Virus record (IMG/VR): IMGVR_UViG_3300009037_000003
Coordinates: 1 to 64,000 of that record
DNA from: a virus
Taxonomy: Duplodnaviria; Caudoviricetes
Length of the DNA: 64,000 bases
Strand: one strand, 5' to 3'
Every line of letters begins with the position of its first letter. Position 1 is the first letter of the stretch. The notes under the pieces were generated by a model. That model was not told where the DNA came from, searched no databases, and saw only the letters and a program-made list of their open reading frames with translations. This document shows, in pieces, positions 8,039 through 21,824 of this stretch. A program made the position numbers and the translations under genes.

Positions 8039-8518
8039 ATGAACCTCAAACAACTTCAACAGATTTTTCCGAAAGCCACGGCAGAGACTTGGCATCAGCA
8101 TCCCAACGGTGGCGGCTGGGTTGAAAACACGGCTACGGTCGCCGATACGGCGTTCGTTGGACAAAACGCTTTGGTGTATGGCAAAGCGAAAGTTTCTGAC
8201 AAGGCTCGGGTCTATGACTCAGCCCAGGTCTACGGGCAAGCCGAAGTCTGCAACGAAGCACAGATTTATGGCAACGCAACAGTTTGCAATAAGTCACAGA
8301 TCTATGGCATGGCGCAAATCTTTGGAGATGCGGTGGTTAACGGTGAGGGGGTACTGGTGTACGACTGCGCAAAGGTGTGCGGCATGGCGTATGTAGAAGA
8401 TTTCGCTTGGGTGAGTGGTGAAGCCATTGTCGACGATAATGTAATAGTATGCAACAATGCCTGGGTTTTTGGGCAAGTTCATTTGCGTGGACTCATCCAG
8501 GTTTGCGGCGACACCTGA
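8039..8518 (+). CDS. Left-handed beta-helix (hexapeptide repeat) protein, paralog 1
   Basis: N-terminus LxQLQQIFPKATxETWHQHPNGGGWVENTA followed by xAxVYG 6-residue repeats. Confidence 0.9.
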   Translation: MNLKQLQQIFPKATAETWHQHPNGGGWVENTATVADTAFVGQNALVYGKAKVSDKARVYDSAQVYGQAEVCNEAQIYGNATVCNKSQIYGMAQIFGDAVVNGEGVLVYDCAKVCGMAYVEDFAWVSGEAIVDDNVIVCNNAWVFGQVHLRGLIQVCGDT

Positions 8519-8564
8519 ATCAGCCAACATGGAATCTCCTAGGGGTTCGCAGGTATAATTGATT

Positions 8565-8648
8565 GCCCATGTGGCGGAATTGGCAGACGCGAAAGATTCA
8601 AGATCTTTTATCCTAACGGGTGTGAGGGTTCGAATCCCTCCTTGGGCA
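8565..8648 (+). tRNA. tRNA-Leu(CAA)
   Basis: GCCCATG/CTTGGGC acceptor, AAAGA-TTCAAGA-TCTTT anticodon arm, long variable arm, GAGGG-TTCGAAT-CCCTC T-arm; CCA not encoded. Confidence 0.93.
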
Positions 8649-8965
8649 TTTTTAAGGAGAAAACAGTATGGCAAATCGCAAATCGTTATCAAAAATCGCT
8701 AAGACTATGGTCTCACTCAGTCCAAACCTTAAGCAAGACGGGTTGACCACTGATGAAATAATAGCGATTATGACCGATCTAGAGACATTAGACAATACCG
8801 GTAAATGGCGGTCACCTGCGTGGGCAAAAGAACTTGGCGATTATCTTGATGTTCCGCCTGGACACCCCAGCGTAACGTCTATCGGCTGGAGAGCTGTCGC
8901 TGTGAGTCTCATAAATCTTTTAAAGGCATAAGTGGTAGTAACTGAGTTTAATGAAAGGGTAATGA

Positions 8966-17702: not shown

Positions 17703-18359
17703 ATGTATATACAAATTACTACTCGATGCAATATGTCGTGTCGTCATTGCGTGTTTGGTTGTACCAGTTCTGGTATAGACATGCCGCTGGATACGTTTAA
17801 AGCAGCGGCCGCAATAGCCGAAGAATTTGATTGCGGTATCTGTATCGGTGGCGGCGAACCAACACTACATCCGGATTTCTGGGAAATCCTTGGTATATCT
17901 CTTGGATCTCTAGTCGAATACGTATGGCTATCTACAAATGGTTCAATAACAGATATTGCCATACCTCTGGCAAGGATGGCAGCAAAGGGTATAGTCGGAT
18001 GCCAACTGTCGAGAACTCAATTTCATGACGACATAGACATAGCCGTAGAAGAAGCGTTTCACAAAAACGAAGAGATTCCGCACACAGTTGATCGGAGAGG
18101 GTATGTTGGTCCAATAGCAGAATCTCGAATCGCTCGGAAGGGTCGTGGGATCAACTTCGTCAAAGGCCAGTCGGATCAATGTGCTTGCGAAGATACGTTT
18201 GTCGAACCAACCGGAGTAATACGCCAATGTGGCTGCGAAAACTCACCAGTCATAGGCGATGTTTTTTCCGGCATCTTTGAAGGTTATACGAACGATCCAT
18301 GTTGCGGCATACTGGGAGTAACTCGTGAAACGCTACCACGTGTTTGCCAAAATCACTAA
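17703..18359 (+). CDS. Radical SAM protein
   Basis: CNMSCRHC (CxxxCxxC), GGGEP, STNG, C-terminal Cys cluster. Confidence 0.9.
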   Translation: MYIQITTRCNMSCRHCVFGCTSSGIDMPLDTFKAAAAIAEEFDCGICIGGGEPTLHPDFWEILGISLGSLVEYVWLSTNGSITDIAIPLARMAAKGIVGCQLSRTQFHDDIDIAVEEAFHKNEEIPHTVDRRGYVGPIAESRIARKGRGINFVKGQSDQCACEDTFVEPTGVIRQCGCENSPVIGDVFSGIFEGYTNDPCCGILGVTRETLPRVCQNH

Positions 18360-18781
18360 TTCGGGCGGGTGGTACGACCACCTACAATCGTTCGATAACC
18401 TGCCAGCTGCGACTCGCCTCGCGGTGATTTGCCCGTACATGTGGGCATATGTCGTCGACATAGAGACCGAGAAAATCGTGGTGCCATTCGCCGAGATTAG
18501 CCAACAGAGATTGAAGCAAAATGTCTCATGAAACACGACTCTGGATAAAAACGATAATTTATTCTATCGCAATCACAATTGCCACATGGTAGCCAAAAAT
18601 GGACATCAACAAAGATATAAGATTGGGACAAATACAACGAGAAATTGAAAGATTGGTCAGAAAGCACAATATTTCCATTACAGAATGGAATCTGAGGACG
18701 GATAGAGTGGAAAGTATCCTCGGACATCTACTAAGAGAAAGAGACCGGCTGTTGAACCGCGAATATGAAAGGTAAGTATCT

Positions 18782-19051
18782 ATGTATGAGTATAACGATC
18801 CATCTAGAGAGTCAGATCCTTGGGCATTGCCTGATCTTGAAGTTTTTTATGTCGACGCGTCAGAATTTCTGAACGCAGAAGAAGGATCTTGGCAAGAAGA
18901 ATATTATGCCGAAGACGGTGGCGGAAATGCAGACGACCTGGTCGGATGGTATTATTGGTCATGTTTCCCGGGGTGTATGCCCGACTCTCCTCCGCTTGGA
19001 CCATATCCATCCCATCGAGCGGCGCTACGGGCAGCAAGAGATGTGGATTAA
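18782..19051 (+). CDS. Acidic small phage protein
   Basis: GWYYWSCFPGCMPDSPPLGPY motif. Confidence 0.65.
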   Translation: MYEYNDPSRESDPWALPDLEVFYVDASEFLNAEEGSWQEEYYAEDGGGNADDLVGWYYWSCFPGCMPDSPPLGPYPSHRAALRAARDVD

Positions 19052-19465
19052 AGAAAGGTTGAGATGGGAAAAATGAAAGTACACGAATTGATCAAAAAGT
19101 TGCATGAATTCGATCCAGATGCTATAGTAATGATTGAACACCTGGACAACGATGGCTGCGACACGTGTGGTTGGGGGGCTACCGAAATACATTCGGATAT
19201 CCAAAATATCATCGATCTTGAAACTAAGGTTATTTTATCTATCCTGAAAACGTAAAAATCGCATGACGAGAAAGTTTAGGGGGCAGATGGTTTCAAAATA
19301 CCTCGCTTGCTGGCTTAGTTCACCAGATGCGACATCGGATAGGTCTTTGGTAATTATTCTAGAACCTGTAACAAGACCAGATGAGGGGTTTCGACTGGTA
19401 ACCTGGAAGCATGGTAAGTGTCGCTATTTGGAAAAGATCCTTGGCAAAATGGGTATTAATCCAAC

Positions 19466-20068
19466 ATGGTAACATTAAGACTTATTGGTGACGTACATGG
19501 CCATTACGACGCGTACATAGCCCTAGCAAAAAAGGCAAAGTATAGTATCCAGTTGGGCGACCTTGGATTTTCCTATTCTTGTTTTCAGGCGCTCGATCCA
19601 GACAACCACAAATTCCTTGGCGGAAACCACGACAATTATTCAGTTGTCCACAAGTACAAGCATTATTTGGGCGACTATGGCACCATACGTTTACCGTCGT
19701 GCCCTGAGATATTCTTTGTCCGAGGCGCTTACAGTATCGATAGGGAAATGAGGATCCTAGGCATCGACTGGTGGGCCGAGGAGCAGCTGACAACAAAAGA
19801 AGGATATCGTGCCATAGAAATGTATAAGACTCATAAACGGGAATTCGTAATTAGTCACGATTGCCCTCTTTGTGTCAAAAAACTGTTGTGCTACGGCAGG
19901 ATGGTTCCCGACCGAACATCCTTTTTGCTGCAGGAAATGTTTGAGATTTATCAGCCACGGCTGTGGATTTTTGCCCACCACCACATTCCTTTTGATCAAA
20001 CAATAGATGGCACAAGATTCATATGTCTGCCAGAACTCGGGACCTATGATATCGAACTGGAGCAATAA
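19466..20068 (+). CDS. Calcineurin-like metallophosphoesterase
   Basis: GDVHG, LGDLG, GNHD, SHDCP, AHHH. Confidence 0.92.
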   Translation: MVTLRLIGDVHGHYDAYIALAKKAKYSIQLGDLGFSYSCFQALDPDNHKFLGGNHDNYSVVHKYKHYLGDYGTIRLPSCPEIFFVRGAYSIDREMRILGIDWWAEEQLTTKEGYRAIEMYKTHKREFVISHDCPLCVKKLLCYGRMVPDRTSFLLQEMFEIYQPRLWIFAHHHIPFDQTIDGTRFICLPELGTYDIELEQ

Positions 20069-20295
20069 TAATGGTTATTAGCGATGATATGCGAGATGTT
20101 GTCTTGTCGGCGAGTAACGGCATTGAACACGATAGACAGTTAGACGAATGCGTTGCAGTGGCTGACGCTTTGATGCAAGTCCAGAATCCGAATAGCGAAG
20201 TAATGCAAATGGTAGAAATTCTGATCGAAAGTATTACCAAATACGAAAATGATATGTATCCGTATGAGAATTAGCCTATAGTCGGGAAATAGAAG

Positions 20296-20784
20296 ATGAC
20301 ACTAGACGAATTTGAAGCTGCTGGAAATGAACCTTGGCAGGTCATGCAACAAGAATGGGTAGACATCATGCATCGCCATGTTACGAGTCTTAATCAACAG
20401 CCTAACGATACGGAATATAAAAATTTTCACGAGTACGACGTGCAAAAAGCGCTCGAAATGGGTCTCTCTGTTCCTGATCGTGTTTTGCAGGACTATCCGC
20501 TCTTGGTGGACAAGGTAGCTCAGCGACAAAAACATGAGAACGATTTTCGTCAACTGAAGATTGGGGATCCAGTCACTGTAAGAATTAACTATTTTGGAAC
20601 GATGGCCGAAGGATTTTTTGTAGGCTTCCTTCCACGCGAAGATGCGTTGGTCTATATCAAGGTGAAGGGCAGAAATCGACCAATGCAATACAGTCGTCAC
20701 GAAATATTTGTCAGAAACGGAAACCGGGCAACCGCCGCAGAAATGAAGAGTCTGAACAAGTGGCGACTTGCGGCTGGGATATAG
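20296..20784 (+). CDS. Hypothetical protein with a motif seen in phage polyvalent proteins
   Basis: PWQ..EW..H..VQKALEMGLSVPDRVLQDYP. Confidence 0.6.
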   Translation: MTLDEFEAAGNEPWQVMQQEWVDIMHRHVTSLNQQPNDTEYKNFHEYDVQKALEMGLSVPDRVLQDYPLLVDKVAQRQKHENDFRQLKIGDPVTVRINYFGTMAEGFFVGFLPREDALVYIKVKGRNRPMQYSRHEIFVRNGNRATAAEMKSLNKWRLAAGI

Positions 20785-20799
20785 TGACAGGGAGAAGAA

Positions 20800-21216
20800 A
20801 TGACACTGAAACAGCTAAAAAAGTTTTTCCCGAAAGCGACTCTTGCAACGTGGAATCGGCATCCTAATGGCAGGGGGTGGGTTGAAAATACTGCCTATGT
20901 TTCTCCTACGGCTTATATTGGACCGGATGCCATAATTTCCGGACAAGCCAGAATTGGAGGTTTGGCTAGGATTTACGATTCTGCTCGCGTGTCGGGCAGC
21001 GCGTTGGTCAGCGATTCGGCGGAAGTCTTTGGGTTCGCTCGGGTGTACGAAGAAGCCGAAATTTATGACAACGCTATCGTACACGGTAATGCTCACGTAT
21101 ACGGACGATCGCTGATCCTTGATAGGACAATGATTTCGGGAGAATGTCACGTTGGATGCGATGTGAAAATTTCTGGCAATGCAAATATTACTGGGGACAG
21201 CGTCATCGGATCGTAA
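20800..21216 (+). CDS. Left-handed beta-helix protein, paralog 4
   Basis: MTLKQLKKFFPKATLATWNRHPNGRGWVENTA plus hexapeptide repeats. Confidence 0.9.
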   Translation: MTLKQLKKFFPKATLATWNRHPNGRGWVENTAYVSPTAYIGPDAIISGQARIGGLARIYDSARVSGSALVSDSAEVFGFARVYEEAEIYDNAIVHGNAHVYGRSLILDRTMISGECHVGCDVKISGNANITGDSVIGS

Positions 21217-21246
21217 AATGCTGTGCTCGTAGCTCAATGGCAAAAC

Positions 21247-21320
21247 AGACCTGTCGCCTAATAGATATGGCATCACTCTTCTAAAGTGAAATAATCTGGG
21301 TGCAACTCCCAGCAGGTCTA
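21247..21320 (+). tRNA. tRNA-Arg(TCT)
   Basis: AGACCTG/CAGGTCT acceptor, TCACT-CTTCTAA-AGTGA, CTGGG-TGCAACT-CCCAG. Confidence 0.88.
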
Positions 21321-21580
21321 TTTGGAATATCTTTAAGTAAAAGATATTTGTTATCAAATTCCCAGTGATGGTTTGGACATAGCGGTAAAAGATTTTTAGG
21401 ACTGTTAATTTCTGTGATAATCGCAGAAAGAGGAAAATCATTTATTGGTCTAATATGGCAAATTTCTACATGATTTTTATATTTACAAACAGCGCATTCC
21501 ATTTTAAGACCAGAAGCAATAAAACTTTTTCTTGCCAATGAAATTGTATTTTGGGGTTCTCCGGTTTTCTTGTTACTCAA
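21281..21580 (-). CDS. HNH endonuclease (possibly N-terminally truncated)
   Basis: CAVC..EICHIRP..NLLPLCPNHHWEFD; AT-rich; the only convincing minus-strand gene. Confidence 0.8.
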   Translation of the reverse strand: MSNKKTGEPQNTISLARKSFIASGLKMECAVCKYKNHVEICHIRPINDFPLSAIITEINSPKNLLPLCPNHHWEFDNKYLLLKDIPNRPAGSCTQIISL

Positions 21581-21674
21581 TGATTAATAATAGTGTATCC
21601 GTTGGTTGGGGGTTCGAGTCCCTCCGGGCACAATCGAAGTGTTCCATAATCTTAATCAGAACAGGTAATGTAAA

Positions 21675-21824
21675 ATGAACGAAGCACTACAAAAGCACTT
21701 ACAGAAACTAACGTCACAGATCGATTCCCTCAGGGTGATGGTAAAGTATCTGGTGTTCGATCTTGAAGCAACCAAGAGGGAAAACGAAAGGTTGCGTAAG
21801 CTCTATGAGGATAACCGCAAGTAA
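21675..21824 (+). CDS. 49-aa coiled-coil protein resembling a conserved small Planctomycetota protein (missing from the ORF track)
   Basis: MNEALQKHLQKLTSQIDSLRVMVKYLVFDLEATKRENERLRKLYEDNRK. Confidence 0.7.
   Translation: MNEALQKHLQKLTSQIDSLRVMVKYLVFDLEATKRENERLRKLYEDNRK

Follow-up and report, generated by a model that had tools for sequence, protein, structure and literature searches.

Group I introns are carried in the anticodon loop of bacterial and phage tRNA genes. By the usual view, homing endonucleases get into essential genes only inside self-splicing introns or inteins, or else sit between genes. SegB of phage T4 is a free-standing GIY-YIG homing endonuclease in the T4 tRNA gene cluster, which recognises the T-psi-C motif of tRNA genes and homes together with the neighbouring tRNA genes, and the end of its ORF abuts a tRNA-Arg (PMC2330249). 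The HNH endonucleases F-TflI/II/IV in the tRNA region of phage T5 are named in the same paper (PMC2330249). 'Fractured genes' are protein genes in which a homing-endonuclease gene separates the two parts and split inteins restore function (PMC2677866). In the literature we have searched, no description was found of a nuclease and tRNA cassette nested in a tRNA gene. Here we analyse such a locus in an environmental phage, and we consider it likely that a free-standing HNH homing-endonuclease cassette landed in a phage tRNA gene with a linked tRNA-Arg(UCU) and left the locus as its footprint.

The window, i.e., the whole stretch of DNA that was analysed, comprises the first 64 kb of an IMG/VR virus record of 139,974 bp with a CheckV completeness of 84%. 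In the whole record, ARAGORN calls four tRNAs only (Leu-CAA, Lys-UUU, Ile-UAU, and Arg-UCU), and there is one copy of an HNH gene of the tRNA-array type. At 21223-21632 of the window, a phage tRNA gene is split by a foreign low-GC cassette, which is composed of a tRNA-Arg(UCU) (the cargo tRNA) and an antisense HNH gene. The features are as follows.

21223..21242, + strand: 5' half of the disrupted tRNA gene, with acceptor strand GTGCTCG, U8 and A9, D-stem 5' strand GCTC, and D-loop AATGGCA (tRNA positions 1-~21)
21243..21596, strand given as '.': inserted cassette of exactly 354 bp, with junction AAAC, cargo tRNA, HNH gene, and a 16-nt junction
21247..21320, + strand: cargo tRNA-Arg(UCU), complete, with an atypical D-loop (AATAGATAT, without GG) and an atypical T-loop (TGCAACT)
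21281..21580, - strand: HNH_2-family endonuclease ORF of 99 aa, N-terminally truncated, its last 13 codons antisense to the cargo tRNA
21597..21632, + strand: 3' half of the disrupted tRNA gene (tRNA positions 38-73)

Read from 21223 to 21632, the order is thus GTGCTCG TA GCTC AATGGCA, AAAC, the tRNA-Arg(TCT) at 21247-21320, the antisense ORF (21580-21281), 16 nt, and the 3' half. The last consists of position 38 (A), the anticodon-stem 3' strand (TCCGT), the variable loop (TGGTT), the T arm (GGGGG.TTCGAGT.CCCTC), the acceptor 3' strand (CGGGCAC), and the discriminator A. A previous sequence-only reading had described an insert of ~354 bp replacing the D-stem 3' strand through the anticodon loop, complementary acceptor strands in the outer halves, an intact tRNA-Arg(TCT) inside the insert, and an AT-rich minus-strand HNH ORF overlapping that tRNA. 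All of these observations are confirmed. The insert, exactly 354 bp long, replaces tRNA positions ~22-37, and the acceptor strands of the outer halves pair at 7/7 positions. The cargo tRNA is called by ARAGORN, scores 55.5 bits with the Rfam tRNA model, and is folded into a cloverleaf by RNAfold (7-bp acceptor, D, anticodon, and T arms; z = -3.4). The ORF matches Pfam PF13391 (HNH_2) over residues 29-80 with 46.7 bits against a cut-off of 21 (E 2.8e-12) and overlaps the cargo tRNA by 40 nt at its 3' end. GC content is 0.30-0.33 at 21300-21600, across the HNH gene, versus about 0.44 in the flanks.

The two outer halves clearly come from one gene. In a scan of the 64-kb window for a T arm with a complementary acceptor, U8, G10, A14, and GG, as expected of a split tRNA, the 21223/21632 pair is the single match, while shuffled sequences give 0.02 per window (4/200). 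With a tRNA profile in nhmmer, the 3' half corresponds to profile positions 39-73 (E 0.019). These results bear on an explanation that needs no homing, in which the halves are leftovers of one or two tandem tRNA genes, the tRNA-Arg is an ordinary neighbour, the HNH gene is intergenic, and later deletions mimic the nesting. Such array decay is unlikely in our view, considering the full complementarity of the two acceptor strands, the low chance expectation for a split tRNA given above, and the occurrence of the acceptor pair plus 5' 18-mer, in viral and metagenome scans, only in single tRNA-Arg genes of two lineages. It does draw on real properties of these regions, i.e., the tRNA arrays around this HNH family are full of tRNA fragments and degenerate tRNAs, deletions are ongoing at the window locus itself in a sister strain, and the 3'-half sequence is generic, matching Met, Arg, and Lys tRNAs. 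However, the insert is compositionally foreign as one block, and in the related phage pair L055/L069 described below, a cassette of this design is a clean insertion into an intact gene.

An Arg identity of the broken gene is likely rather than proven, because the anticodon has been deleted. The 5' 18-mer is the exact 5' end of a tRNA-Arg(TCT), a tRNA-Arg(GCG), and a tRNA-Ile in other viral contigs (L005, L006, and L004, respectively), and the 3' 25-mer is exact in another tRNA-Arg(TCT) (L003). When the 5' 18-mer and both acceptor strands are taken together, matches in the viral and metagenome collections are limited to the tRNA-Arg(TCT) of the L005 lineage and the tRNA-Arg(GCG) of L006. The stretch 21597-21629 is matched by short bacterial contigs, whose upstream sequence reads on as tRNA-Arg UCU (stem ACGGA/TCCGT) or UCG. 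A 27-mer of the variable loop and T arm was dropped as identity evidence because it is not Arg-specific; in the bacterial genome scan it is exact in 75 alphaproteobacterial tRNA-Met(CAT) and 4 Arg(UCG) genes. Viral tRNA-Lys(UUU) genes show the same acceptor stem and the same anticodon stem, ACGGA/TCCGT, as the broken gene, and when the halves are ranked crudely by identity to 363 tRNAs, a Lys(TTT) comes out on top, which is not decisive. The earlier description of the outer gene as 'Arg-like' is made likely by the 18-mer and acceptor matches to Arg genes, but weakened by the lost anticodon and by the parts shared with Lys(UUU) and Met(CAT) genes. From these matches, Arg would be the best guess at somewhat better than an even chance, Lys would take a distinctly smaller share, and other identities the rest.

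An intact, HNH-free allele of the window phage's own locus was not found by pattern, DNA, or synteny searches, and the versions of the locus seen in other contigs are decayed ones only. In viral and metagenome contigs, the exact pattern (5' 18-mer, gap, 3' 21-mer) gave 0 matches, and a looser pattern gave only tRNA-Arg(TCT) of the L005 type. The locus DNA has no match among 50,697 cultured phage records. Synteny via the upstream beta-helix protein led to one relative at 35%, without tRNAs, and via the downstream deaminase to relatives at 46-57% in other contexts, also without tRNAs. The empty allele that the sequence-only reading had proposed to look for was thus not found in these searches for the window phage lineage; for a sister cassette there is one, as L069 is intact where L055 is filled.

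The HNH protein has kept its core and lost its front part. In an alignment of 12 members (the window protein and 11 relatives), the window protein keeps all 17 invariant family residues, and the metal-binding and catalytic beta-beta-alpha-Me core is invariant in the 12 members (C29, C32, H37, H42, N59, N63, C68, N70, and HHWEFDN at 71-77). The Cys-rich N-terminal region (KFCSRSC, CxxC; ~80-100 aa) is absent, which leaves 99 aa versus 131-293 aa in the relatives, except for a few that are clearly stumps as well. Its start codon, TTG, is not preceded by a clear ribosome-binding site, and a promoter and terminator scan of the locus gave no signal above shuffles. With such a truncation, start codon, and unclear ribosome-binding site, the window HNH may be dead.

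In soil metagenomes of a different study, we have found a strain that is 97-99% identical (L048-L050). It keeps the 5' half and the cargo tRNA, the latter with one substitution (A1 to G), while 21384-21610 is deleted, i.e., 227 bp that include most of the HNH gene and reach into the 3' half, joined at a 3-nt microhomology. This indicates that the cassette is older than the strain split and that the nuclease gene is eroding. By its sequence, the element is a decaying relic or fossil rather than an active one, because its HNH is truncated to 99 aa and the sister strain has lost 227 bp more. In this respect the active HNH element that had been implied for the window has to be corrected.

The sister strain also supports the assembly. 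Contigs L048-L050 and pieces from runs X6 and X7, all of other studies, contain either the 5' half beside the cargo tRNA or cassette-internal sequence, and an assembly artefact is unlikely. The whole architecture is not fully replicated, because the right-hand junction (HNH/3' half) is bridged only in the probable source run. Such independent assemblies argue against a chimera, which we take together with site-specific integration of the integrase type, in which attachment fragments would be duplicated. tRNA genes are well known as sites of integration, and the elements integrated there frequently bring along a copy of the 3' part of the tRNA. Yet the element is just 354 bp long with no integrase and no direct repeat, and the two halves complement each other as parts of one gene instead of being duplicated. 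Integration or chimera is hence very unlikely.

Several differences between the two strains lie near tRNA genes. Beta-helix (hexapeptide-repeat) paralogs adjoin tRNA genes at 8039-21320 of the window, and the copy at 20800-21216 stops 6 bp before the split tRNA. On the other side of the split tRNA, a 49-aa gene begins at 21675. Between this beta-helix gene and the split tRNA (between window positions 21216 and 21220), the soil strain bears two further genes (L048:6301-7707), which the window does not have. They constitute a split-intein pair, with a 175-aa protein bearing an N-terminal intein splicing domain and a 275-aa protein starting with a C-terminal intein piece. In addition, the window segment 15564-17096, which holds a 5' remnant, a D-armless tRNA, a beta-helix paralog, and a tRNA-Ile, is matched in position by unrelated DNA with a different tRNA-Ile(UAU) in the soil strain (L048:958-2176). 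As this exchange begins exactly at the 3' end of the tRNA-Lys, tRNA genes mark recombination boundaries here. The remnant at 15564-15589 (GGCTCTTAGCTCAACAGATAAA) is a second tRNA remnant resembling a 5' half, 16/24 identical to the half at 21223, and it lies directly upstream of the D-armless tRNA, exactly at the mosaic boundary with the sister strain. A 3' partner for it was searched for, and none was found.

The HNH family itself is strongly associated with phage tRNA arrays. Two successive scans yielded 40 and then at least 80 viral loci of this family, with about 58 distinct architectures, and all but 2-3 of these architectures are located in tRNA arrays. In these loci the HNH stop codon usually lies inside, or a few nt from, a tRNA or tRNA remnant. 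The window HNH shows the same trait, being located in a tRNA array with its stop codon inside a tRNA gene. In the HNH tree, the window protein is paired with the 218-aa protein of L047 (support 96/91), and both fall within a clade (83/85) in which every HNH gene is antisense to a tRNA of the Arg type or to what remains of one. The partners of another clade (95/91) are Arg tRNAs and D-armless tRNAs with UCU or CCU, and the clades beside tRNA-Met(CAT) are sense-oriented. Such clade-specific tRNA partners are what one would expect for site-specific homing enzymes. The family has a cultured member, gp109 of Streptomyces phage TomSawyer (MN369750), which is annotated only as 'HNH endonuclease'.

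In the D-armless tRNA-like genes mentioned above, the anticodon loop carries UCU or CCU (once GAU), and the anticodon hairpin is followed by a single-stranded GTAATTGGA that is conserved. Their family shows compensatory changes in 18/19 pairs (RNAalifold). None of them is called by ARAGORN, and the four copies that are intact in the scanned loci were not picked up by the Rfam tRNA model at the gathering threshold. These genes adjoin the HNH family either as cargo or as target, and were located as follows.

Window 15590-15663 (+): D-armless tRNA-like gene
L059:2104-2180: D-armless tRNA-like gene
L069:1916-1991: D-armless tRNA-like gene
L103:2110-2185: D-armless tRNA-like gene
L113, L115, L118, L126, L096, L060, and L076: further D-armless tRNA-like genes

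The survey of HNH and tRNA units nested within tRNA halves, which had been suggested as a check, has shown that the design recurs. An HNH gene with a whole Arg tRNA lies between tRNA halves in at least three other lineages, represented by unrelated phage contigs (L055, which is the same contig as L009; L103/L105; and L115). The order in L055 is the 5' half of a D-armless tRNA(UCU), 15 nt, a canonical tRNA-Arg(TCT), an antisense HNH gene (167 aa), and the 3' half. In L103/L105 the arrangement is a canonical tRNA 5' half ending at the anticodon TCT, an antisense HNH gene, a whole D-armless tRNA(UCU), and the 3' half; in L115 it is a 5' half ending in the D arm, an antisense HNH gene, a D-armless tRNA(CCU), and the 3' half. 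The breakpoints elsewhere cluster at tRNA positions 36-40, and the 3' half in the window begins at 38. In the two independent cases in which the broken anticodon is readable, it is TCT both times, the same as that of the cargo. Two observations count against the cassette reading. In L110 a sense HNH gene lies between tRNA halves with no cargo tRNA, and in L059 the remnant loop reads TAT though the cargo is UCU, which may be due to pseudogene drift.

L055 and L069 offer the most direct comparison. Their flanks are 85-90% identical, and the UCU tRNA that is split in L055 is intact in L069 (1916-1991). Compared with L069, L055 carries 624 bp more, inserted cleanly at AAA|C|AG directly 3' of the anticodon loop, so that one UCU tRNA gene is seen in its filled (L055) and in its empty (L069) state. 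In its 3' acceptor strand, the L055 half is unlike the L069 allele and closer to another D-armless allele (L059 type), as might result from co-conversion with a donor. L069 bears an HNH gene of its own at another place (47% identical), of which only the last 52 nt remain in L055, and this indicates nuclease turnover.

These nested inserts also help to judge whether the element is an intron, group I or other, that carries a homing-endonuclease ORF and is spliced out to restore the outer tRNA. Group I introns do occur in the anticodon loop of tRNA genes, and in one locus a group I intron in a tRNA gene (L068:2887-3078, -; Rfam 64.3 bits) lies directly beside an HNH and tRNA-Arg(UCU) unit. In the window, however, no tRNA could be restored by splicing because the outer halves are without positions ~22-37, including the anticodon, and with a tRNA and an antisense ORF taking up the about 350 bp, there is no room for a ribozyme core. 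Intron models gave no family match in the window, with no Intron_gpI at E<=10, and no match in the nested inserts of L055, L103, L115, and L110, while the L068 intron is detected by the same tool at 64 bits. With incomplete exons and no intron-model match in the window or the nested inserts, the intron reading was rejected as extremely unlikely. That any compensation does not work through splicing, as had been claimed, agrees with the incomplete outer parts and the absence of an intron match.

The cargo tRNA of the window is peculiar in its tertiary contacts. It is without the canonical G18 G19 in the D-loop (AATAGATAT) and without T54-psi55-C56 (T-loop TGCAACT). Among tRNAs with U-G-C-R-A in the T-loop instead of T-psi-C-R-A, the D-loop GG is missing in 8/9, versus 11/354 ordinary ones. 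Since both deviations co-occur in this way, the combination looks like a variant class rather than decay, that is, one in which the tertiary contacts appear to co-vary. The Rfam RAGATH-21 model shows a weak resemblance to the class (22 bits), whose members are as follows.

Window 21247-21320: tRNA with UGC T-loop (the cargo tRNA)
L068:2725-2797: tRNA with UGC T-loop
L093, L097, L103, L107, L114, L117, and L121: further tRNAs with UGC T-loop

In addition, the T arm of the cargo (GGGTGCAACTCC) departs from the SegB motif GGTTCRANTCC, while that of the broken gene fits the motif. This contrast would suit an enzyme that reads the T-loop, and we give it little weight because the T-loop of the L055 cargo is ordinary.

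Based on the above analyses, we propose how the locus may have come about. In a mixed infection, a full-length HNH protein, with the Cys-rich N-terminal DNA-binding part and the HNH core, would nick or cut HNH-free tRNA alleles of the UCU type, probably near the 3' side of the anticodon loop. Repair from the donor would then bring in the HNH gene together with the tRNA next to it, the tRNA halves serving as homology arms. As nothing is spliced in this scheme, the resident tRNA gene would be destroyed, and the invasion would be nearly cost-free because the co-transferred isoacceptor keeps AGA/AGG decoding. After fixation the nuclease would decay; the window HNH has lost its N-terminal third, with tRNA positions ~22-37 lost too, and in the sister strain decay has gone further, with the HNH almost all gone and the cargo tRNA retained. 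We infer that the HNH protein makes the break, and where it cuts; the cargo allele would in turn escape cutting, and the cargo would have been selected as compensation rather than by hitch-hiking. As the design, and with it an intact 'empty' allele, is found in related phages too, it appears to be a recurring, intron-free way for a homing nuclease to invade tRNA genes. The selfish cassette originally proposed for this DNA is strongly favoured by the foreign unit, the tie of the HNH family to tRNA arrays, the recurrence, and the L055/L069 pair, while its HNH here is a truncated relic, and the match between broken and cargo isoacceptor is unreadable in the window phage.

A broader reading is possible, though well short of probable. 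HNH and tRNA units might be a separate class of mobile 'tRNA replacement cassettes', which destroy the resident tRNA of a given anticodon and install an atypical isoacceptor whose DNA is immune to the nuclease, either with a UGC T-loop and no D-loop GG or of the D-armless GTAATTGGA type. If this is true, the isoacceptor might also resist host tRNA-targeting defences at the RNA level, and both the selfish element and the phage would then gain.

For RNA genes, the proposed cassette suggests a third route, i.e., to break the target and carry a spare. This would help explain the abundance of HNH genes, tRNA fragments, and redundant or odd isoacceptors in the tRNA arrays of phages, the position of tRNA genes at mosaic boundaries between phage strains, and the spread of unusual tRNA architectures among phages. 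The L069 and L055 alleles would be concrete substrates for studying the specificity of an uncharacterised nuclease family.

Compared with known systems, the cassette is like T4 SegB in being a free-standing nuclease gene inside a phage tRNA cluster, and it would share with SegB a tRNA gene as target and the spread together with adjacent tRNAs, by which SegB replaces the recipient's tRNA region. On the other hand, SegB is a GIY-YIG rather than an HNH enzyme and is sense-oriented, it cuts the 3' ends of tRNA genes via the T-psi-C motif, unlike the proposed anticodon-loop site, and it leaves no target gene as halves around the element, since the cluster is exchanged by flanking homology. F-TflI/II/IV of phage T5 are similar to the window HNH in that they are HNH-type ORFs among phage tRNA genes and, to our knowledge, have not been reported within a split tRNA together with a compensating isoacceptor. 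Like the cassette, group I introns of tRNA genes and the homing endonucleases that they encode lie in or next to the anticodon loop and have presence/absence alleles (for the cassette, L069 and L055), and the endonuclease decays after fixation; unlike them, the cassette has no ribozyme or splicing, and rescue, if any, would come from the second complete tRNA gene that it carries. TomSawyer gp109, from the same family, is 51% identical over the core and is located in a tRNA array with its stop codon 8 nt before a tRNA-Ile, but it is sense-oriented and intergenic, and the annotation shows no split tRNA. 'Fractured genes' (PMC2677866) also have a homing-endonuclease gene between host-gene pieces and a separate device that restores function, and their rescue is protein trans-splicing of the same gene, while in the cassette the broken gene is abandoned and a spare copy is used instead. 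Overall, the window locus is best seen as a variant of the free-standing homing endonucleases of tRNA clusters, with T4 SegB as the closest system studied.
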